A DNA stretch of 64,000 nucleotides from an uncultured Candidatus Saccharibacteria bacterium (GCA_964592365.1 CAZQDL010000001.1:79541-143540); one strand, 5' to 3'; shown: positions 13,956 to 23,287, counted from the first letter of the stretch. The notes: generated by a model from the letters alone, not told the origin. A program made the numbers and translations.

Positions 13956-14031
13956 GGTGACTATGGTATAACGGTTATTACTCGGGTTTGTGGTACCTGC
14001 AATCAGGGTTCGATTCCCTGTAGTCACCCCA
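13956..14031 (+). tRNA. tRNA-His (anticodon GUG) with a genome-encoded G-1 and an encoded 3' CCA
   Basis: Manual fold. G-1 at 13956. Acceptor stem GTGACTA/TAGTCAC, anticodon stem-loop CGGGT-TTGTGGT-ACCTG, T-arm CAGGG-TTCGATT-CCCTG, discriminator C, then CCA. Confidence 0.8.
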
Positions 14032-14044
14032 ATTGAGAATAAGT

Positions 14045-14070
14045 GAGGCGAAAGCCTCGCTTTTCTCTTT
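14045..14070 (+). terminator. Hairpin (GAGGC-GAAA-GCCTC) followed by a T-run, downstream of tRNA-His
   Basis: Read directly. Confidence 0.5.
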
Positions 14071-14169
14071 ATTTCCAAGCGTTTTATCCAGAGATTGCTT
14101 TTGCAAACGACCTTTTGATGATGTATAGTAATGGTATCAAATGTTAGGTTATAAATCAACGATATTTTT

Positions 14170-14367
14170 ATGAAAAATCAATCAAAGAACGATGAAAACA
14201 TTGAGTTACTGACCTTGCAAGAGGCTTGTGACGTACTCAAGGTACATCCCAACACCTTACGACAATGGGATAAAATAGGAACGCTTCCCGCTATTCGCAT
14301 TGGGACCAAGCGTATACGACGTTACAGAAAACAAGACATTATGAGTTTCCTTGAAGGTAACTCATAA
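14170..14367 (+). CDS. Small HTH DNA-binding protein of the excisionase (Xis/MerR-like) family. Possible island excisionase or R-M controller.
   Basis: LTLQEACDVLKVHPNTLRQWDKIGTLPAIRIGTKRIRRY matches the excisionase-family helix-turn-helix pattern. It is the first gene after tRNA-His and the first gene of the methyltransferase operon. Confidence 0.55.
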   Translation: MKNQSKNDENIELLTLQEACDVLKVHPNTLRQWDKIGTLPAIRIGTKRIRRYRKQDIMSFLEGNS

Positions 14368-14398
14368 GAATACCAAGACTCATCAGATTAAAATTACT

Positions 14399-15061
14399 AT
14401 GAACAATCTTACTAAATCAAAAAAACGAATACGTGACCATGGTGAAGTTTTCACCCCTGATTTTATTGTGGAAGATATGCTTGATTTGGTGAAAAATGAA
14501 ACTGAGCGTATAGAGTCACGCTTTCTTGAGCCCGCGTGTGGAGATGGAAATTTCTTGATCAAAGTACTTGAACGAAAGATGGAGGTTGTAAAAAAACGAT
14601 ACAAGAAAAGTCAATTTGATTATGAGAGAATGGTGCTCATTGCTGTGGGAAGTACATACGGAGTTGATTTACTAGATGATAACGTCAAAGATGCACGTGA
14701 TAGGTTACATGAATACTGTGCGAATGAATATATTAAACTATTCAAAAATAAGGTTCACGAAGAGGTATTAGAAAGTATGAGATACATTTTAAGTAAAAAT
14801 ATCTTACAAGGTGATGCTTTGAGTTTAAAAAACAAAAATGGCGAACCGATAACTTTTGCAGAATGGTCTCTTGTAAATGGTTCAAAAATAAAACGCAGAG
14901 ATTTCCAATTTGTAGACCTTGCTGAATTTGACCCAGCTATCCCAAGCTTGTTTTCTGTCAGTGAAGAGTCAGACACGGGTAAGGTAGTATTTTCGCCACA
15001 ACCATCAATAGATTATCCAGCAGTAAATTTTATGAAATTACATGAATCATATGAAAACTAA
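14399..15061 (+). CDS. N6-adenine methyltransferase-like protein. It has the SAM-binding motifs X and I but lacks the catalytic motif IV.
   Basis: GEVFTPDFIV (motif X) and FLEPACGDGNFL (motif I). A possible motif III is ILQGDALS. No (N/D/S)PP(Y/F/W) follows. Start trimmed to the ATG at 14399. Confidence 0.45.
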   Translation: MNNLTKSKKRIRDHGEVFTPDFIVEDMLDLVKNETERIESRFLEPACGDGNFLIKVLERKMEVVKKRYKKSQFDYERMVLIAVGSTYGVDLLDDNVKDARDRLHEYCANEYIKLFKNKVHEEVLESMRYILSKNILQGDALSLKNKNGEPITFAEWSLVNGSKIKRRDFQFVDLAEFDPAIPSLFSVSEESDTGKVVFSPQPSIDYPAVNFMKLHESYEN

Positions 15062-16565
15062 CCTTAACTACAATCCAGATGTACTTGATGCACTTGCTAA
15101 CCTTAGTAACGATGAGGTCTTTACACCACCAAAACTTGTAAATGAAGTCCTAGATATGTTACCTAGCGAACTTTGGAATGATAAGAATGCAACATTTTTA
15201 GACCCAGCAACAAAGTCAGGAGTATTTTTACGAGAAATTGCAAAACGTTTGATTGAAGGACTTGAAAAAGAAATTCCAGATCTACAAGAACGACTTAATC
15301 ATATCTATACCAAACAATTATTTGGCATTGGAATCACAGAACTGACTTCGTTACTCGCCCGCAGGAGTCTCTATTGTTCAAAAATAGCAAATCACGAAAA
15401 ATACTCGGTATGTACAGAATTTGAAAACCCAGATGGAAACATTAGATTCGAGCGCATTGAACATGCTTGGAAGAATGGAAAATGTGAAGACTGTGGAGCG
15501 AGCGAAGGTGAGTATGATCGACATGAATCGCTAGAAACCCATGCCTATGAATTTATTCATAAAAAACCAGAAGAAATTATCAGTTTATTTAATAAAAAAG
15601 ATATGAAATTTGACGTAATTATAGGAAATCCACCATACCAAATGGGTACTGGTGGTCCATCTGCTCAAGCAACGCCTTTGTACGATAAGTTCGTTCAGCA
15701 AGCAAAAAAACTAAATCCAAGATTTCTATCAATGATTATCCCCGCACGGTGGTACAGTGGAGGAATGGGTCTCAATGATTTTAGATCTGACATGTTGAAT
15801 GATCAACGTTTACGGAAGCTTGTGGATTACACAGATTCATCAGAATGTTTTCCTGGTGTTTCGATTAAGGGAGGTATTTGTTATTTTCTCTGGAATAGAG
15901 ATGACCGTGGTTTATGTAATGTTTTAAGTATTACAAATGGACAAAAAAAAGAATCAGATAGATTTCTAGTTGAAGAAGGAAGTGATATTTTTATTAGATT
16001 CAATGAAGCAATATCAATCTTAAGAAAAGTTAAAGATAAGAAAGAGAAATTATTTTATGAATTTGTTTCTTCACAAAAACCATTTGGATTCCCAACAAAT
16101 TTTAGAGGAAAATCAAAACCATTTAAAGACTCAATTAAAATTTATGTAACAAAAGGCATTAACTATATTGATCGCAACCTTGTTGAGAAAAACATTGATT
16201 TAATTGATAGTTATAAAATCTTGAATACAAAAGGATATGGAGCTGGAGAATCTTTTCCACATCAAATTTTAAATAAACCAATCTTAGCTGAACCAGGAAC
16301 TTGCTGTTCGGAGACATACATTGTATTAGGTATTTATAAAAATAGAGAAGAAGCTGAAAATGCAATTTCTTATATAAAAACCAAATTTTTTAGATTTCTT
16401 GTTATGCTACAAAAGAACACTCAGGATTCCTTAAAAAGGGTTTATAAATTTGTTCCAATACAAGATTTTTCAGAAGAATGGACAGACGAAAAGTTATATA
16501 AAAAATACAAACTAACCAAAGAAGAAATTGATTTTATCGAATCAATGATTCGACCAATGGAATAA
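15042..16565 (+). CDS. Gamma-class N6-adenine DNA methyltransferase (Eco57I/TaqI-like motif order X-I-IV) with a 4-Cys insertion
   Basis: DEVFTPPKLV (X), FLDPATKSGVFL (I) and FDVIIGNPPYQ (IV). A CxxxxxxxxC...CxxC zinc-ribbon-like insert lies between motifs I and IV. Confidence 0.75.
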   Translation: MNHMKTNLNYNPDVLDALANLSNDEVFTPPKLVNEVLDMLPSELWNDKNATFLDPATKSGVFLREIAKRLIEGLEKEIPDLQERLNHIYTKQLFGIGITELTSLLARRSLYCSKIANHEKYSVCTEFENPDGNIRFERIEHAWKNGKCEDCGASEGEYDRHESLETHAYEFIHKKPEEIISLFNKKDMKFDVIIGNPPYQMGTGGPSAQATPLYDKFVQQAKKLNPRFLSMIIPARWYSGGMGLNDFRSDMLNDQRLRKLVDYTDSSECFPGVSIKGGICYFLWNRDDRGLCNVLSITNGQKKESDRFLVEEGSDIFIRFNEAISILRKVKDKKEKLFYEFVSSQKPFGFPTNFRGKSKPFKDSIKIYVTKGINYIDRNLVEKNIDLIDSYKILNTKGYGAGESFPHQILNKPILAEPGTCCSETYIVLGIYKNREEAENAISYIKTKFFRFLVMLQKNTQDSLKRVYKFVPIQDFSEEWTDEKLYKKYKLTKEEIDFIESMIRPME

Positions 16566-16566
16566 T

Positions 16567-19071
16567 ATGTCTGACAAATACTTTTCACAACGGCCAGATG
16601 TATCGCCGATAATATATGTATATGAACTCCCAACTGCAGAGGACAGAAAGGGTCTCTTGAAGGTGGGTTACACCACTCGAAATGCCAGCGACCGAATCAA
16701 GGAACAAGTTGGGACCGCAGGGATTGGATATAATATCCTTTTGGAAGAAAGTGCAATTCGCAGTGATGGATCTACCTTTGACGATCATGAGGTACACCAT
16801 TATTTACGCAAAAAGAAATATCCTAACCCTGACGGTGAATGGTTTGAGTGTGGTTTGGATGATGTAAAAGCAGCTATTTATTCTATAAAGAATCGAAAAG
16901 AAAATACCGAAAATCGTACGCTTGATTTCAGAATGAGACCAGAACAAGAAATGGCTATGAATAAAGCATATAGCCATTTCACATCCATGAATGAAACTTC
17001 TCATTTTTTGTGGAATGCAAAAATGCGTTTTGGTAAAACATTTGCTTCGTATCAACTTGCAAAGAAAATGAAATCAAAAAAGGTCCTGGTATTAACCTTC
17101 AAGCCAGCAGTAGAGACCGCTTGGGAGGAAGATCTTTTGACGCATATAGATTTTGAAGGATGGCAATTCTATTCACGTAAAAGTACAGCAGAGTTTGAAG
17201 ATCTTGACATGAATAAACCAATCGTTTGTTTTGGATCATTGCAGGATTATCTAGGGAAAAGTTCAGGAGGAGGAATCAAGGCTCGAAACAAATGGGTTCA
17301 TGATACCCATTGGGATTTAGTTATTTTTGATGAATACCACTTTGGTGCATGGAATGATAAAACAAAAGATCTTTTTGATGAGACCGATAAGGATGATCAG
17401 AATACTGAAGAGAAAAAAAACGACAGTATCGCCAAAGAAGCATTTGCTGAGGGTTTGAAAAACGCTGAGGCAATAATGCCTATAACCACGGATAATTATC
17501 TGTATCTTTCAGGTACTCCATTTCGTGCTATAAATACGGGTGAATTTATAGAAGAGCAGATATTTAATTGGACGTATTCTGACGAACAGCGTGCAAAAGA
17601 AGAATGGAAGGGTTCCAATAATCCATATGAATCATTGCCAAAAATGATTATGATGACCTATCAAATGCCTGATTCTATCAAGCATATAGCGGAAGGGGGC
17701 GAATTTAATGAATTTGATTTGAATGTTTTTTTCTCTGCAAAAAAGAATGATACTGGCATGTATGAATTCGTGTATAAAGATTATGTTCAAAAGTGGCTAG
17801 ATTTATTGCGAGGTAATTTCATGCCAACGGCAGTTGATGATTTGAAACTAAGTAAGCAGAAACCGCCTTTCCCATTTTCTGATTCACGAATGTTGAGTAT
17901 CTTAACGCATACGTTTTGGTTTATGCCTTCAGTGGCCTCTTGTCACGCCATGAAGAATCTTATTGACGAGCGACAAAATGCATTCTATCAAGATTATAAA
18001 TTGATCGTCGCTGCTGGAAATCAAGCTGGAATGGGAGTAGAGGCTCTTGGTCCAGTACAAAAAGCAATGGGCGATCCATTAAAAACAAAAACTATTACAC
18101 TATCTACGGGAAAACTTACAACAGGAGTTACTGTGAAGCCTTGGACTGGTGTCTTGATGCTTCGTAATTTGAAAAGCCCTGAAACATATTTTCAGACGGC
18201 TTTTCGTGGTCAAAGTCCATGGGTGATTGATAATCCAGATGGAAAATCGCCTAATAAAAAAGAGATTTTGAAAAAACAATGTTATATCTTTGACTTTGCT
18301 CCCAATCGTGCACTTTCTCAAGTTGCAGATTATAGTTCAAATCTAAATGTTACCGAGAAAGATCCAGAGAAAAAAGTTGCAGAGTTTATAAAATTCCTTC
18401 CCATTCTTGCATATGATGGAAGCTCGATGAAAGAGATTGATGCAGGTGGAGTTCTGGATATTGCATTAAGTGGTACCACAGCTACCTTGCTTGCACGTCG
18501 ATGGGAGAGCGCATTATTGGTAAATGTAGATAATGAGACTCTTGCACGCCTTATGTCAAGTGATGAGGCGATGAGAGTTTTAATGAGTATTGAAGGCTTT
18601 CGTTCTTTGAACCAAGACATTGAGACGATCATCAACAAATCTGAATCGGTAAAAAAGACAAAGCAGGAAGCAAGTGAGCGTGAGTTAACCAAAAAAGAAA
18701 AGAAAGAGCTTAGCGATGATGAAAAAGAATATAAGAGTAAAAGGAAAGAGATTCAGGAAAAACTGATCAAGTTTGCAACACGTATTCCCGTATTCATGTA
18801 CCTAACTGATTATCGTGAACGCACACTAAAGGATGTCATCACAAAGCTTGAACCGTCGTTATTCAAAAAAGTAACAGGACTAGAGGTGAAAGATTTTGAA
18901 CTTTTAATGAGCTTGAATATCTTTAATAATGCCCTAATGAATGATGCAGTGTATAAATTTAAACGCTACGAGGATTCCAGTCTTGAGTATACTGGTGTTA
19001 ATCGACATGAAGGCGAAGATGTTGGGGGATTCGATACCGTAACTACAGAAAAAGAATACAAGCAAATGTAA
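16567..19071 (+). CDS. SF2 helicase of the type III Res (ResIII)-like family, with an N-terminal T5orf172/GIY-YIG-like domain. Putative restriction or defence ATPase-nuclease.
   Basis: N-terminus YVYELPTAEDRKGLLKVGYTTRNASDRI...GEWFEC. Helicase motifs: Q-like RPEQEMA, motif I RFGKTFAS, motif II DEYHFG, motif III LSGTPF, and C-terminal RecA-like motifs (LTTG, FRGQS). There is only a 1 nt gap after the methyltransferase stop. Confidence 0.65.
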   Translation: MSDKYFSQRPDVSPIIYVYELPTAEDRKGLLKVGYTTRNASDRIKEQVGTAGIGYNILLEESAIRSDGSTFDDHEVHHYLRKKKYPNPDGEWFECGLDDVKAAIYSIKNRKENTENRTLDFRMRPEQEMAMNKAYSHFTSMNETSHFLWNAKMRFGKTFASYQLAKKMKSKKVLVLTFKPAVETAWEEDLLTHIDFEGWQFYSRKSTAEFEDLDMNKPIVCFGSLQDYLGKSSGGGIKARNKWVHDTHWDLVIFDEYHFGAWNDKTKDLFDETDKDDQNTEEKKNDSIAKEAFAEGLKNAEAIMPITTDNYLYLSGTPFRAINTGEFIEEQIFNWTYSDEQRAKEEWKGSNNPYESLPKMIMMTYQMPDSIKHIAEGGEFNEFDLNVFFSAKKNDTGMYEFVYKDYVQKWLDLLRGNFMPTAVDDLKLSKQKPPFPFSDSRMLSILTHTFWFMPSVASCHAMKNLIDERQNAFYQDYKLIVAAGNQAGMGVEALGPVQKAMGDPLKTKTITLSTGKLTTGVTVKPWTGVLMLRNLKSPETYFQTAFRGQSPWVIDNPDGKSPNKKEILKKQCYIFDFAPNRALSQVADYSSNLNVTEKDPEKKVAEFIKFLPILAYDGSSMKEIDAGGVLDIALSGTTATLLARRWESALLVNVDNETLARLMSSDEAMRVLMSIEGFRSLNQDIETIINKSESVKKTKQEASERELTKKEKKELSDDEKEYKSKRKEIQEKLIKFATRIPVFMYLTDYRERTLKDVITKLEPSLFKKVTGLEVKDFELLMSLNIFNNALMNDAVYKFKRYEDSSLEYTGVNRHEGEDVGGFDTVTTEKEYKQM

Positions 19072-19094
19072 AAGAGCCCAAGAAGGCTCTTTTA
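19072..19094. terminator. Bidirectional terminator (AAAAGAGCC-N6-GGCTCTTTT) between convergent genes
   Basis: Read directly. Confidence 0.6.
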
Positions 19095-19104
19095 ATATGA
19101 CTAA

Positions 19105-19710
19105 TTAAATATCTTTTTCATCCATGAGTTCGCGAATAGTCTTATCTTTGTAGGTCCAGAATATTGAACCCTGAACCGCTTTCCAGTTTTTCTTGAATTT
19201 TTCCTTGAGGATTATTTTAGCCGACTTTGATAAAGATGTTTCTTTACCTTTATAAATAATACTATTTCCATTACCTACTGTTGCGATGATATCAGAGTAT
19301 ATTTCATCTCCTTCTTTAAATTTTAAAATCTCTCCTTTTTGGATATTTAATTTAGTGAACTTACCAAGGATTTTTTTATCTTCTTCTTTTCTAATCTTTT
19401 TGTTGTCTTCGATAAAGTCACATATCCTTTCTGGGTGTTCTTCAAAGAACTCTCGTTTTCTATTTACTCTCTTTTTTGCAAAATGTTGAAAGATTTCTTG
19501 TTCAAGAACCTCAGCATTCTTCATGTCAAATTTCTCATATACTTGAAATCTGGTAGGTAGTGATGTCCTATTAAGACTTTTAAGTCTCTGCTCTATATCA
19601 TTCGTCACTCCCACCTTGCATATATTTGGCATAGATATGTTGGTGATAATGTATAAGGTGCTTTTCATGTAGATAGTATAGCTTAATTTAATAAAATTTA
19701 TATTATTCAC
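19105..19710 (-). CDS. T5orf172 (MUG113/GIY-YIG-like) domain protein with a C-terminal extension
   Basis: YIITNISMPNICKVGVTNDIEQRLKSLN...RVNRKREFF matches the T5orf172 pattern. Confidence 0.55.
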   Translation of the reverse strand: MNNINFIKLSYTIYMKSTLYIITNISMPNICKVGVTNDIEQRLKSLNRTSLPTRFQVYEKFDMKNAEVLEQEIFQHFAKKRVNRKREFFEEHPERICDFIEDNKKIRKEEDKKILGKFTKLNIQKGEILKFKEGDEIYSDIIATVGNGNSIIYKGKETSLSKSAKIILKEKFKKNWKAVQGSIFWTYKDKTIRELMDEKDI

Positions 19711-19809: not shown

Positions 19810-20376
19810 ATGGAAAATATTACTACTGAAGAATATGTCTTGCTTTTAGAAAAAGTTAATCAGCAATTAAATTTATTATCTAACCCTTACGGGGTTATGG
19901 TTATGGTACTCACTCTTTTAGTAGCTATTTTAGCTATAATAACCACTTTTATTATTTACAGGCAAGGGGTAGATTATAAAAATACATTAAAAAAATCACT
20001 CGAATCTCACCAAGAAATATTAGAGAAGAAACTCATAGAAATAGGAAATGAAGCAGAGCAGACCCTACAGTCTTATATTGATCAGAAAAATGAAGAGATT
20101 AGTGGATTAGCTGGTGAGGCAAAAGAGGAGGTAACAAAAGCGATTAGTAAATTGGAAGCCGAGAAGAATAGCATAACCTCAAGAATTAAATTTAATTCCA
20201 TAGATCATTTTAACAGTGTTGATAATAGATTAAGTGCTCATAACAGCCTGTTGCTACAAAATAATACAAATGCCCTAAGGACATGCTCATCTTGTTACAG
20301 GTCCTTAGGTGTTACAGATTCTTTAATTACAGGAAGGTGTAGTGACTGTGCTAGCCAAAAAATATTTCAGATATGA
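19810..20376 (+). CDS. Hypothetical protein with an N-terminal TM helix, a coiled coil and a C-terminal CxxC...CxxC zinc ribbon
   Basis: TM helix MVMVLTLLVAILAIITTFIIY. C-terminus CSSCYRS...CSDCASQ. Confidence 0.4.
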   Translation: MENITTEEYVLLLEKVNQQLNLLSNPYGVMVMVLTLLVAILAIITTFIIYRQGVDYKNTLKKSLESHQEILEKKLIEIGNEAEQTLQSYIDQKNEEISGLAGEAKEEVTKAISKLEAEKNSITSRIKFNSIDHFNSVDNRLSAHNSLLLQNNTNALRTCSSCYRSLGVTDSLITGRCSDCASQKIFQI

Positions 20377-20836
20377 AAAGAGATATAGTTAAAGAAGATA
20401 TTTTTCTTCAAAAGAAAGAGATGTTAAGCATCAGATTAATAACCTAAATCAAGAGAATTGGAAATCAAATATTCTAAATATAGGAGAATTGAGCAGATTT
20501 GGTTTCCTGCTGTTGGTTTTTATGATATTAGTGTTTATTGCTACTATTATTAATTTTCATTCTAAAAAATTGTATACTATTCAAATTTAGACGGTTACTT
20601 TAATGAAGAAGGTGATCATAAAAAAGATGGTCTCGACTCTACTTATTTTAATATAGTGAAGCTTTACGGACAAAGGTTTTTTTTGAATAAAACTGCTTCT
20701 ATTTTTGATTGGGGTAGTTATGGTATTTCTGATAATATCTAAAATATGAATAGTTTAGAAAAAGAGTTTGGTATAAGAGAGCCTGAAAGAGGCCCAAAGC
20801 AAAAGAAGAATTTAGCTTGATAGATAAGATATTTTT

Positions 20837-21391
20837 ATGACAAGAGAGGCAATATTAAACCATATAGATTTACAAGTATTTATTTTGAGTATTTTTGATA
20901 ATACCTTCCTCGGAAGTCTTTTTGCTGGTTTAATATTAGGATACATAGCATTTGAAACTTATAAAAAGCAAAAAAAAGTAGATCTTGAATTCTATTTTAA
21001 AAAGGAAAAAGAAATAGCTAAACGTACTTTTATTAATAAAATTAAGGCTTTTAGGAGAGAAGCAGTTCCTACACTTAAATCTTTTTTGTCACAAGAGAAA
21101 CACACAATTGATTATATTGAAGTAACGATGAGCGAACTAGGGGAAATTGAGGTTTTAAATAACTTTCAAAATATATACGATAAACACCGTGATGAAATTA
21201 ATAGAGCTTATGAGGAACTATGTACTCATTTTGAAATAGAATCTCTTAGTTCGCATATGGCCACTATTCAATTTTGCTTAATGCAAATGAGGTTAGTTTC
21301 AAAAACGAGCAATGAGGGTTTAAAGCTGACATTAAAAAATATTGAGAATGAAACCGAAGCCATTATAAAACATCTTGAATTTAAAGAATGA
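20837..21391 (+). CDS. Hypothetical protein (184 aa), N-terminal TM helix
   Basis: ORF only. Confidence 0.35.
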   Translation: MTREAILNHIDLQVFILSIFDNTFLGSLFAGLILGYIAFETYKKQKKVDLEFYFKKEKEIAKRTFINKIKAFRREAVPTLKSFLSQEKHTIDYIEVTMSELGEIEVLNNFQNIYDKHRDEINRAYEELCTHFEIESLSSHMATIQFCLMQMRLVSKTSNEGLKLTLKNIENETEAIIKHLEFKE

Positions 21392-21648
21392 AGATAAATA
21401 TGTTTATTCACCAAAAAGAAAACGAGAAAAAATATCTAACAAAAAAAGAAGAAATATATGATAAAGCCTCAATATGGGGTCAGTTTCATGGTTGGTTCTT
21501 GCTAGTGACATCTATAGGATTATATGTTTACGGACTTGTAGCCAATAACACCTTAAGTCAATCTATTAGTATAAGTTTCATTGATTTAGTACTAAATATT
21601 ATTGTTGCAATCATAATGATTCAGATTTCATCGAGAATTGACCAATAA
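21388..21648 (+). CDS. Small membrane protein (86 aa), overlapping the upstream gene by 4 nt
   Basis: ATGA overlap. Two TM helices. Confidence 0.35.
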   Translation: MKINMFIHQKENEKKYLTKKEEIYDKASIWGQFHGWFLLVTSIGLYVYGLVANNTLSQSISISFIDLVLNIIVAIIMIQISSRIDQ

Positions 21649-21841
21649 AATATCCAAAGAAAAAACCGATTAAAGTCGCACTAGTTTTTTGGTTAATATT
21701 ATTACTTATTTTAATGTTGACGGGAGCCTCTGTTATACAGAAGTTTTTTTGTTTCGTGGTTTTATATAAATTAGTGAACGCAAATACCAGTTTGAGAGAA
21801 ACTAAAACCTAGAGAATGAGTATTCTTATATTAAGTTAAGA

Positions 21842-22069
21842 TTATAAAAATGGTATTTCAGAATTAATTTCTTTCCAATTTAGAGTTCTGAAATCATCCA
21901 GCCATTGACCCATTAAGGGACATATACCCTCCAAACCTTGAAAAGGTCCTTGTTTATCAAGGGCTTTTTCTAGTTCGATTACAGGATACTTAGATTTAAT
22001 AGAATTTACTAATAATCGAACTTCTTTATAGGTAGGTTTTAGCTCAATAGTTATCTCCTTATCTTTCAT
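21842..22069 (-). CDS. Hypothetical protein. The frame is open further upstream with no ATG, so the true start is uncertain.
   Basis: Stop-to-stop frame extends to about 22235. Only the 75 aa segment is Met-initiated. Confidence 0.25.
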   Translation of the reverse strand: MKDKEITIELKPTYKEVRLLVNSIKSKYPVIELEKALDKQGPFQGLEGICPLMGQWLDDFRTLNWKEINSEIPFL

Positions 22070-22242
22070 GCTGTATTTGGTCCCAATTTGCCTTACAAGA
22101 AAACGCTTTTCAGTATCATCACCTGTTTCAAGAGCTTCTTCATATAATTCATTAAAATTAAATGCTTTCTCAATATCTTTATATAAATCATTCGAAGTTT
22201 CTGCTTCAATAAAATCAATAAATAATATAAACTTAAGATATT

Positions 22243-22980
22243 ATGATGAACTTTTTTACAAAATTATTAACTCCAGTATTTATTGCTCTGGGAATGGTTA
22301 ATCCTGCTCCTGTCATAGAAACACCAACACCTGATATACAAGTACAACAAGAGCTTATTGAATTACGTCAAAGAGTCCAAGAGTTTGAAAACCGAAATGA
22401 TCAAGAAGCGGAATTAGAGCCAAAATCACAAGAGACTAAAGAAAAAGTTATTGAAATAAAACCAGCAGAAGTGAAAAAGGAAAACCTTAATACCTTAACT
22501 ATTTTTAAACCTGAGTCGAAACCCACAGAGACTTTAATAGATGCTTCTTATCTAGATAAATTAGAGCTTTTCAATGTTAAAGTAGCCAAGCTAGATGAGG
22601 AATCTAGTAAGGAATTAGATGCATTAGATTTAAAATATGACTCAAAAATTGCGAAGGTTAAACAGGAGATTATTGAAATTAACAAAATGTTTGATGATTA
22701 CGAACAATCCATAACCTTAGGTTTTGTTCCTGGATTTTCGGGCGGCGGTAACGGTGCACCATCTTCAGTTACAAACAGTAAAATGCAAGTTGAATTGAAT
22801 CGAAGGTCTCAATGGCTTTTATCTACCTATCCAGTAGAGTTTGAAGCTTTAAAGTTAGAAATGCAGGGATATCTTGATGAAAAGATGGAAGCGATTAATA
22901 AATCAGAATCCAATTTAATTAAAGAGATTAAAGAATTGCAAACACAGTGGAATATAAAGACAGAAGATTGGTTATATTAA
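22243..22980 (+). CDS. Secreted or anchored coiled-coil protein (245 aa)
   Basis: N-terminal hydrophobic segment followed by a charged helical repeat region. Confidence 0.4.
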   Translation: MMNFFTKLLTPVFIALGMVNPAPVIETPTPDIQVQQELIELRQRVQEFENRNDQEAELEPKSQETKEKVIEIKPAEVKKENLNTLTIFKPESKPTETLIDASYLDKLELFNVKVAKLDEESSKELDALDLKYDSKIAKVKQEIIEINKMFDDYEQSITLGFVPGFSGGGNGAPSSVTNSKMQVELNRRSQWLLSTYPVEFEALKLEMQGYLDEKMEAINKSESNLIKEIKELQTQWNIKTEDWLY

Positions 22981-22981
22981 T

Positions 22982-23287
22982 ATGAAAAAACTAATAATAT
23001 TAATACTTATCATTTTTGTAGGGCGATATCTATATATAAATAATTTTAGAAAAGAAGAATGGACAGGATTTTTTTATCCTAATGCTGAAGATCTTTCAGG
23101 GTGGATCAAGTCAGATAGATTATTTGATAGCATTGAATCGTGTAGGGACTGGATTGATTATCAGGTTGATGTATCTATGTTAGAGAATCCAGAGTTTTAT
23201 GAAGAAGGCGGTGATTATGATTATGAATGTGGACTTAACTGCAGATTGAAATCAGGAATGAATGTTTGTGAAGAAACTATTCAATAA
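22982..23287 (+). CDS. Small secreted Cys-containing protein (101 aa)
   Basis: Signal-like N-terminus, four Cys residues. The start lies 2 nt after the upstream stop. Confidence 0.35.
   Translation: MKKLIILILIIFVGRYLYINNFRKEEWTGFFYPNAEDLSGWIKSDRLFDSIESCRDWIDYQVDVSMLENPEFYEEGGDYDYECGLNCRLKSGMNVCEETIQ

Follow-up and report, generated by a model that had tools for sequence, protein, structure and literature searches.

The stretch of DNA analyzed here, i.e., the window, spans 64,000 nucleotides of an uncultured Candidatus Saccharibacteria genome (GCA_964592365.1 CAZQDL010000001.1:79541-143540) and contains, at positions 14,170 to 19,710, four co-directional open reading frames (ORFs) followed by a convergent one. 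Three consecutive genes of this set, all on the plus strand, are the main subject of this report and probably constitute a restriction-modification (R-M) system: M1 (14399-15061, 220 aa), M2 (15042-16565, 507 aa; Pfam Eco57I methylase, E = 5e-36), and R (16567-19071, 834 aa; Pfam T5orf172, MUG113, and ResIII). Ahead of them lies a gene for a 65-aa helix-turn-helix (HTH) protein (14170-14367, plus strand; Pfam HTH_17, E = 6e-13) and behind them, on the minus strand, a standalone T5orf172/MUG113 gene (19105-19710; 201 aa from GTG 19710, or 187 aa from ATG 19668, the usual gene-caller start). All five ORFs described in a first-pass annotation, made from the sequence alone, are indeed present; its account of their spacing had to be revised. 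The mechanical ORF of M1 extends from TTG 14351 (236 aa), and gene callers and homologues make ATG 14399 the most likely true start, with which the reported overlap with the HTH gene disappears and a gap of 31 nt is left. The overlap between M1 and M2 is 20 nt, or 11 nt if the alternative ATG at 15051 is used, the 1-nt gap between M2 and R is the only one of the locus (two such gaps and two overlaps had been reported), and R is 33 nt apart from the convergent gene. Nor do the genes begin immediately after the tRNA-His gene (13957-14031), as had been written: the HTH gene starts 138 nt away from it, behind a terminator-like hairpin that directly follows the tRNA (14041-14062) and a promoter-like site (14100-14129). 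A G+C-rich hairpin between the convergent genes (19069-19094, 11 pairs and then a T run), picked up by the same scan for terminator-like structures, probably ends the operon as a bidirectional terminator.

We read positions 14399-19071 as an intact R-M system of the DrdVI/MaeIV type (the atypical "split methylase" Type IIG-like group of REBASE) that sits behind a lineage-specific HTH gene and acts by M1:M2-directed translocation and cleavage by R, and give this reading a probability of roughly 85%. The best plasmid match was pDrdVI (Deinococcus wulumuqiensis NEB 479), on which the three genes recur in the same order, and the MaeIV trio of Methanococcus aeolicus PL15/Hp was located, again in this order, in CP104873. 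BLASTP identities over essentially the full length of the proteins were 44.5% (M1), 50.5% (M2), and 55.5% (R) to DrdVI, and 63.6% (M1), 64.5% (M2), and 74.4% (R) to MaeIV. The methylation motif of M1-2.DrdVI is GCAGCC, modified to N6-methyladenine (m6A) (PMC6430315), and that of MaeIV is GCACY, on one strand (PMC10113651). New England Biolabs (NEB) labels this family "split methylase/RM", and an NEB/United States Department of Agriculture paper describes the R protein of DrdVI, encoded beside M1.DrdVI and M2.DrdVI, as 'a fused translocase and REase' (REase, restriction endonuclease) with a GIY-YIG domain (PMC4996451). The architecture had been correctly read at the outset; the kind of system, not recognized then as a described and named one, is already known.

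DrdVI and MaeIV share with the window the three genes, their order, the motif pattern of M1 and M2, and an R protein that combines GIY-YIG nuclease and translocase. They are unlike it in the target recognition domain (TRD) region of M2 (residues 350-400), which is only ~40% identical to either, so that the recognition site cannot be transferred from them and is probably different from both. An upstream HTH gene, a convergent T5orf172 neighbor, and a host among the Patescibacteria (candidate phyla radiation, CPR) are features of the window only. No primary paper on DrdVI enzymology could be traced (PMC4996451 cites '(29)' for DrdVI, but this reference announces an unrelated genome), and no published structure was found for the DrdVI/MaeIV family.

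Two methyltransferase subunits and a nuclease-translocase

The motif patterns of M1 and M2 were complementary in all members examined (M1, n = 40; M2, n = 36, including fused members and members of 28% identity). M1 is the S-adenosylmethionine (AdoMet)-binding half of a gamma-class N6-adenine methyltransferase, with canonical motifs X, I, II, and III, no motif IV, and two beta-hairpins thereafter. Its motif I reads LEPACGxGNF, with both glycines kept in 40/40 proteins, whereas the first glycine is replaced by lysine in 36/36 M2 proteins (variant DPATKSG in the window, 15198-15227, plus strand). The acidic residue of motif II is D/E in all 40 M1 sequences and A/G/S in all 36 of M2, motif III is G(D/N)AL in the former and non-canonical (a conserved FIH) in the latter, and motif IV is found in M2 alone, as NPPYQ in 36/36 (NPPY at 15627-15638, plus strand). 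The motif order of M2, i.e., X (FTP, residues 27-29), I (residues 53-62), and IV (NPPY, residues 196-199), is that of the gamma class, in line with the earlier assignment from FTP, DPATKSGVFL, and NPPY (invariant or nearly so) and with the distinction drawn there from the beta-class Mod of Type III systems. The small protein, on the other hand, had been taken for an incomplete paralogue and nothing more, and turns out to be a conserved subunit, present even beside enzymes in which R and M2 are fused. The reported four-cysteine insertion of M2 (residues 112-151) does exist as a cluster, but the conserved ligand-like set consists of C112, H141, C148, and C151, and C124 is unconserved.

Conservation within M2 reaches its minimum at residues ~300-450 (15939-16391) of the family alignment, a region that we take to be the putative variable TRD, and the single one of the system. 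Positions 860-1359 of the PADLOC REase_MTase_IIG profile PDLC03626 match M2 (E = 1e-50). Another PADLOC methyltransferase profile, of 348 positions, covers M2 residues 187-506 alone, which suggests that the unit of catalytic half and TRD may also exist as a separate cluster. Matches of M1 and M2 to MmeI_Mtase remained below the Pfam gathering score. Four loci (L015, L019, L024, and L032; L numbers denote comparison loci and contigs), from Lachnospiraceae, Blautia, Melainabacteria, and Bulleidia, carry M1 twice in tandem ahead of M2, the additional paralogue being ~209 aa long and 34-40% identical to the M1 of the window; these loci belong to the same clade as the long C-terminal extensions of R described below.

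The cofactor site might come from M1; alternatively, M1 might be a dimerization partner, like that in the Mod2 dimer of Type III systems, or an AdoMet sensor. We tentatively consider a more specific possibility, doubtful as it is, namely that the enzyme is split at its cofactor site: M1 would be the sole canonical AdoMet binder, either completing a composite active site with the NPPY/TRD half of M2 or, as a pseudo-enzyme, sensing AdoMet and licensing R, and the N-terminal half of M2 would persist as a degenerate copy with a role in docking. We know of no such division of labor described for prokaryotic R-M enzymes.

R begins with a T5orf172/GIY-YIG nuclease domain (residues 15-105, 16609-16881; Pfam T5orf172, E = 3.6e-8, above the gathering score, and also MUG113), continues with a superfamily 2 (SF2) core of the double-stranded DNA (dsDNA) translocase kind (residues ~120-580, 16924-18306; Pfam ResIII at residues 121-266, E = 5e-6), and ends, in the AlphaFold2 (AF2) model, in an all-helical domain (residues ~581-834, 18307-19068). 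The model is confident for residues 10-110 and for both RecA-like lobes, and the former fold with the beta-beta-alpha-beta-alpha-alpha topology of GIY-YIG domains. In family alignments of 20 and 72 members, residues Y17, K32, G34, R43, H77, and E91 of the N-terminal domain are invariant, as are the motor motifs RPEQ (124-127), GKT (156-158), DEYH (255-258), SGTP (315-318), and QxxFR of motif VI. No PD-(D/E)xK domain was detected in the C-terminus, where Pfam gave no nuclease match past residue 266 and residues 580-834 of the model are entirely helical. The initial view of this protein thus holds in all its parts, i.e., a complete set of ResIII-type SF2 motifs, invariant or nearly so, in an ATP-dependent R-M-type module whose N-terminal T5orf172/GIY-YIG domain replaces a C-terminal PD-(D/E)xK nuclease. 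For T5orf172 domains, nuclease activity has been experimentally proven in the case of Gp88 of phage ICP1 (PMC8263062).

Foldseek matched R to SF2 dsDNA translocases at large, Snf2-like enzymes among them (Chd1, ISWI, Rad54, ZorD, the Type ISP enzyme LlaBIII at E = 2e-9, and SauUSI), and the motor, as modelled, is of the general SF2 dsDNA-translocase fold, without particular likeness to Type III or Type ISP. The helical C-terminal domain is likely a coupler that docks on M2, because the linker preceding the methyltransferase in a fused Lactiplantibacillus enzyme aligns with residues 657-829 of R, and because PDLC03626 (1359 positions) covers R 107-761 together with M2 15-506. Many R proteins of the family are longer (910-1003 aa) owing to a small additional C-terminal domain (e.g., L018:7977-10988, L007:7992-10730, and similar loci), a PcrA/UvrD tudor in Firmicutes-type members and DUF4926 in Bacteroidota-type members; the R protein of the window carries no extension of either kind.

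Distribution, neighboring genes, and transfer

A comparison set of 40 genome loci from many phyla was searched with all five window proteins, and gene order was counted in the 33 with at least ~2.3 kb of sequence upstream of R. M2 lies directly or closely upstream of R, in the same orientation, in 33/33, and M1 precedes M2 wherever the contig extends far enough. The hosts include Saccharibacteria, Bacteroidota, Bifidobacterium, Lachnospiraceae, Planctomycetota, Melainabacteria, Alphaproteobacteria, and Woesearchaeota. Plasmid records with R numbered 81 and those with M1 77, the two sets agreeing in taxon profile, and divergent plasmid members (Legionella, 28% identity; Mycolicibacterium) keep the order of the trio. 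As this order is maintained in the 33 loci and on plasmids, down to the most divergent members, the unit is M1-M2-R, i.e., three genes and not the five-gene module first proposed. More than 8000 R homologues were obtained at 90% clustering, the best 120 of which are ~830 aa long with 67-100% identity and come from Patescibacteria, Methanococcus, Cloacimonadota, Bacteroidota, Ignavibacteria, and Epsilonproteobacteria. When representatives at 50% identity were searched exhaustively, 1052 clusters matched R (E <= 1e-30). An apparently truncated M2 in L001 was traced to a scaffold gap of 100 N and is not biological.

The junction between M2 and R is an insertion hotspot (L003:4151-7741, L006:1309-2754, L009:3225-4070, L025:6992-8011, and L032:3353-4246), occupied, depending on the locus, by a ParB-like + Dam + Fic set, SLFN/AlbA2-HATPase, Bro-N, a YhcG PDDEXK nuclease, or a NERD-like gene (the labels ParB-like, Dam, Fic, and NERD are readings of the sequences, not profile matches). 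Downstream of R, GmrSD-type genes occur in four loci (three from Bacteroidota and one from Candidatus Enterosoma) and McrB-EVE in two. The genes inserted between M2 and R or following R are other defence-type genes. One Muribaculaceae locus (L040:8001-8510) holds a decayed copy, in which only a fragment of R is left (residues ~401-652, with frame breaks) and neither M1 nor M2 is nearby.

Neither neighbor of the trio in the window belongs to this conserved unit. The HTH protein is of the small excisionase/MerR-like DNA-binding type and is encoded by the first gene of the local operon, but tblastn and phmmer found no such gene near the trio in the 40 other loci, where the genes upstream of M1 are heterogeneous and mutually unrelated (Fic, HARE-HTH/PDDEXK, DUF6941, and a single Cro/C1 HTH). 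Its role as a conserved controller was rejected on these grounds; it is a lineage-specific accessory, which may control transcription of the operon. Membership of a MADS system was likewise rejected, as the HTH protein matches mad1 only weakly (21 bits, with an NCBIfam MAD1 cut-off of 80), MAD2 scores are 13-23 bits (cut-off 720), and no further mad genes are present. The standalone T5orf172 gene, absent as well from the 40 other trio loci searched, is an independent neighbor and not a conserved component. That it encodes a T5orf172 domain, as first described, is evident from Pfam (MUG113, E = 6e-15; T5orf172, E = 2e-14). A duplication of the N-terminal domain of R was considered as its source and rejected, there being no significant sequence similarity between the two. 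The protein has no Pfam match to DUF4357, and its phage matches are limited to weak T5orf172 proteins. It agrees with the PADLOC candidate PDC-S57 (PDLC05041, E = 1.4e-38; PDLC05043, E = 1.6e-28), which is a candidate system only, of putative function, and the gene has the appearance of a candidate for a defence or selfish nuclease in its own right.

The Patescibacteria genome of the window was recovered repeatedly with an identical cassette. The first-pass annotation had placed the cassette in a defence island next to a tRNA gene; we found no att-like repeat of the tRNA 3' end within 10 kb, no integrase among the called genes, and only a small shift in GC content (0.359 in the operon vs 0.333 in the window). 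All contigs with the identical flanking VKOR gene also carry the cassette, so that there is no empty site for comparison, and neighboring ORFs have no domain matches. A tRNA-linked integrative island is hence unsupported, and evidence for a defence island beyond adjacency to the tRNA is weak. Horizontal transfer of the system, on the other hand, is clear, because R is 74% identical to an archaeal orthologue and copies occur on plasmids and in a few phage-like records. Elsewhere in the window, an ORF that includes ribosomal protein L19 (11991-12566; Pfam match in L044) ends in a long acidic tail with EEATEEATEEATEE-type repeats, and six small ORFs downstream of the cassette (19810-23287) have no recorded Pfam match in any matching contig; one of them (19810-20376) ends in a CxxC...CxxC motif.

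Rival readings, mechanism, and significance

Fused T5orf172-helicase-Eco57I-methyltransferase enzymes (1417-1452 aa), encoded on plasmids of Lactococcus, Enterococcus, and Lactiplantibacillus, are homologous to the window proteins across nuclease, motor, helical linker, and methyltransferase (~30-36% identity) and differ in that R and M2 form one polypeptide with the R part first, in the order T5orf172, motor, helical linker, and Eco57I-methyltransferase. A small M1-like gene lies immediately upstream in the Lactococcus and Lactiplantibacillus records inspected. The Lactococcus lactis form (L046:4401-8759, 1452 aa) has ~200 extra N-terminal residues before the T5orf172 domain, and the Lactiplantibacillus form (1417 aa) lacks these and follows a gene of 306 aa whose product is just 27% identical to M1. 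Such fused relatives share the domain order of Type ISP enzymes (nuclease, motor, methyltransferase, TRD), which could be taken, together with the ResIII-type SF2 motor, the LlaBIII methyltransferase domain as the closest structural match of M1, LlaBIII among the fold matches of R, and one-strand modification of an asymmetric site (PMC10113651), to indicate a Type III or Type ISP system proper. We give this assignment next to no chance, as sequence profiles fail to reach either LlaGI/LlaBIII or EcoP15I. Type ISP enzymes such as LlaGI and LlaBIII are single chains with an N-terminal Mrr-family PD-ExK nuclease, whereas the window has three ORFs and a T5orf172 nuclease. Type III systems combine a beta-class Mod (motif IV before motif I) with a Res subunit carrying a C-terminal PD-ExK nuclease, at odds with the gamma motif order of M2 and the helical C-terminus of R, and to our knowledge no extra M1 subunit accompanies either type. 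EcoP15I, whose methyltransferase assembly has two subunits and a single methylating protomer (PMC4490356), resembles the window in its ResIII-family motor and in single-strand methylation of asymmetric sites, and differs in its beta-class Mod homodimer and C-terminal PD-ExK nuclease, neither of which the window encodes.

The locus could also be regarded as a previously undescribed five-gene defence system. PADLOC and NCBIfam returned no named-system match for R except the generic 'REase_MTase_IIG' profile, the annotation of most copies in databases goes no further than hypothetical, GIY-YIG, or DEAD helicase protein, and no solved relative of R, M1, or M2 was detectable by sequence, as PDB searches with single sequences and profiles gave coiled-coil noise or weak hits to MmeI, BseCI, and PglX. 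Two of the five genes, however, are not conserved partners, and the trio is orthologous to DrdVI and MaeIV, whose methylation motifs are experimentally assigned (PMC6430315, PMC10113651, PMC4996451), which makes a new system highly improbable. According to Blow et al., Type IIG-like systems arise by permuting endonuclease, methyltransferase, and translocase modules around one TRD (PMC4752239), and one of their examples, a three-protein family of MmeI-like methyltransferase, translocase, and GIY-YIG nuclease (PMC4752239), corresponds to B. subtilis dnmA-yeeB-yeeC (PMC9973331). This OspHL35III or DnmA(YeeA)-YeeB-YeeC type has several hundred REBASE members (PMC4752239, PMC9973331). Like the window, it has an operon of three genes for these activities, but its nuclease and helicase are separate and its methyltransferase is one full MmeI-family chain, whereas the window fuses nuclease and helicase and spreads the methyltransferase over M1 and an Eco57I-family M2.

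As has been proposed for the B. subtilis genes, the window locus might be domesticated or a relic, with M1 and M2 as an orphan regulatory methyltransferase and an R that no longer restricts. The small, streamlined genomes of CPR bacteria speak in favor of this, and several observations weigh against the reading as an intact DrdVI/MaeIV-type system. B. subtilis was not protected from phages by the related dnmA-yeeB-yeeC under the assay conditions used (PMC9973331). In a metagenomic variant (JGI 3300008002; L042/L049), a 1-nt deletion (GGATTAC -> GGA-TAC) at window position ~15827 splits M2 into ORFs of 294 and 114 aa beside an intact R. The deletion may have arisen in assembly, or the methyltransferase may truly have been lost next to an intact nuclease gene; in the latter case, R may be tolerated without methylation. 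The AF2 model of R is of moderate quality overall (predicted local distance difference test, pLDDT, 67; predicted template modeling score, pTM, 0.51), and the AdoMet motifs of M2 are non-canonical, so that either M1 or M2 may bind the cofactor. Neither biochemical nor phage-challenge results on R proteins of the DrdVI family were found in the searchable literature, so that ATP-dependent translocation by R, the position of cleavage, and a two-site requirement are all inferred. Against a relic stand the three intact ORFs, an R that is identical in the 24 contigs read, and the retention of every catalytic residue of nuclease, motor, and methyltransferase; tight operon packing and the 74% identity, across domains, to the archaeal R of MaeIV argue for recent transfer under purifying selection. 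We therefore hold domestication or decay to be unlikely and prefer an intact DrdVI/MaeIV-type system.

For such a system, the orthologues provide a starting point, as co-expression of their M1 and M2 results in m6A at an asymmetric site of 5-6 bp, on one of its strands (PMC6430315, PMC10113651). The catalytic residues of the nuclease, of Walker A/B, and of NPPY are invariant in the family alignments, and these intact motifs suggest that R would cleave DNA. We postulate that the M1:M2 complex reads the site and, where this is unmodified, would recruit or activate R via its C-terminal domain; R would then move along dsDNA at the expense of ATP, and its GIY-YIG domain would cut away from the site. 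Given that one-strand marking leaves fully unmodified sites on one daughter duplex after replication, self-cleavage would have to be prevented by a dependence on two unmodified sites in suitable orientation, with collision or convergence as in Type ISP or Type III systems (for the Type ISP translocation-collision mechanism, see PMC3553950). Cutting at a fixed offset, as in classical Type IIG enzymes, is the alternative to this two-site model.

The practical consequence of an affiliation with DrdVI and MaeIV is a correct label, as thousands of copies now called 'hypothetical', 'GIY-YIG nuclease', or 'DEAD/DEAH helicase' belong to one REBASE-named R-M family. This family is now seen intact in a CPR bacterium, and it is very large and moves across domains, as illustrated by an R protein 74% identical to that of a methanogen. 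Of specialist interest are the coupling of a GIY-YIG nuclease to a dsDNA translocase and the retention of an extra AdoMet-binding half-protein in every member, fused forms included. If the split at the cofactor site considered above were true, it would amount to an obligate hetero-oligomeric DNA methyltransferase, conserved over more than 1000 clusters at 50% identity and combined with a translocating GIY-YIG nuclease.

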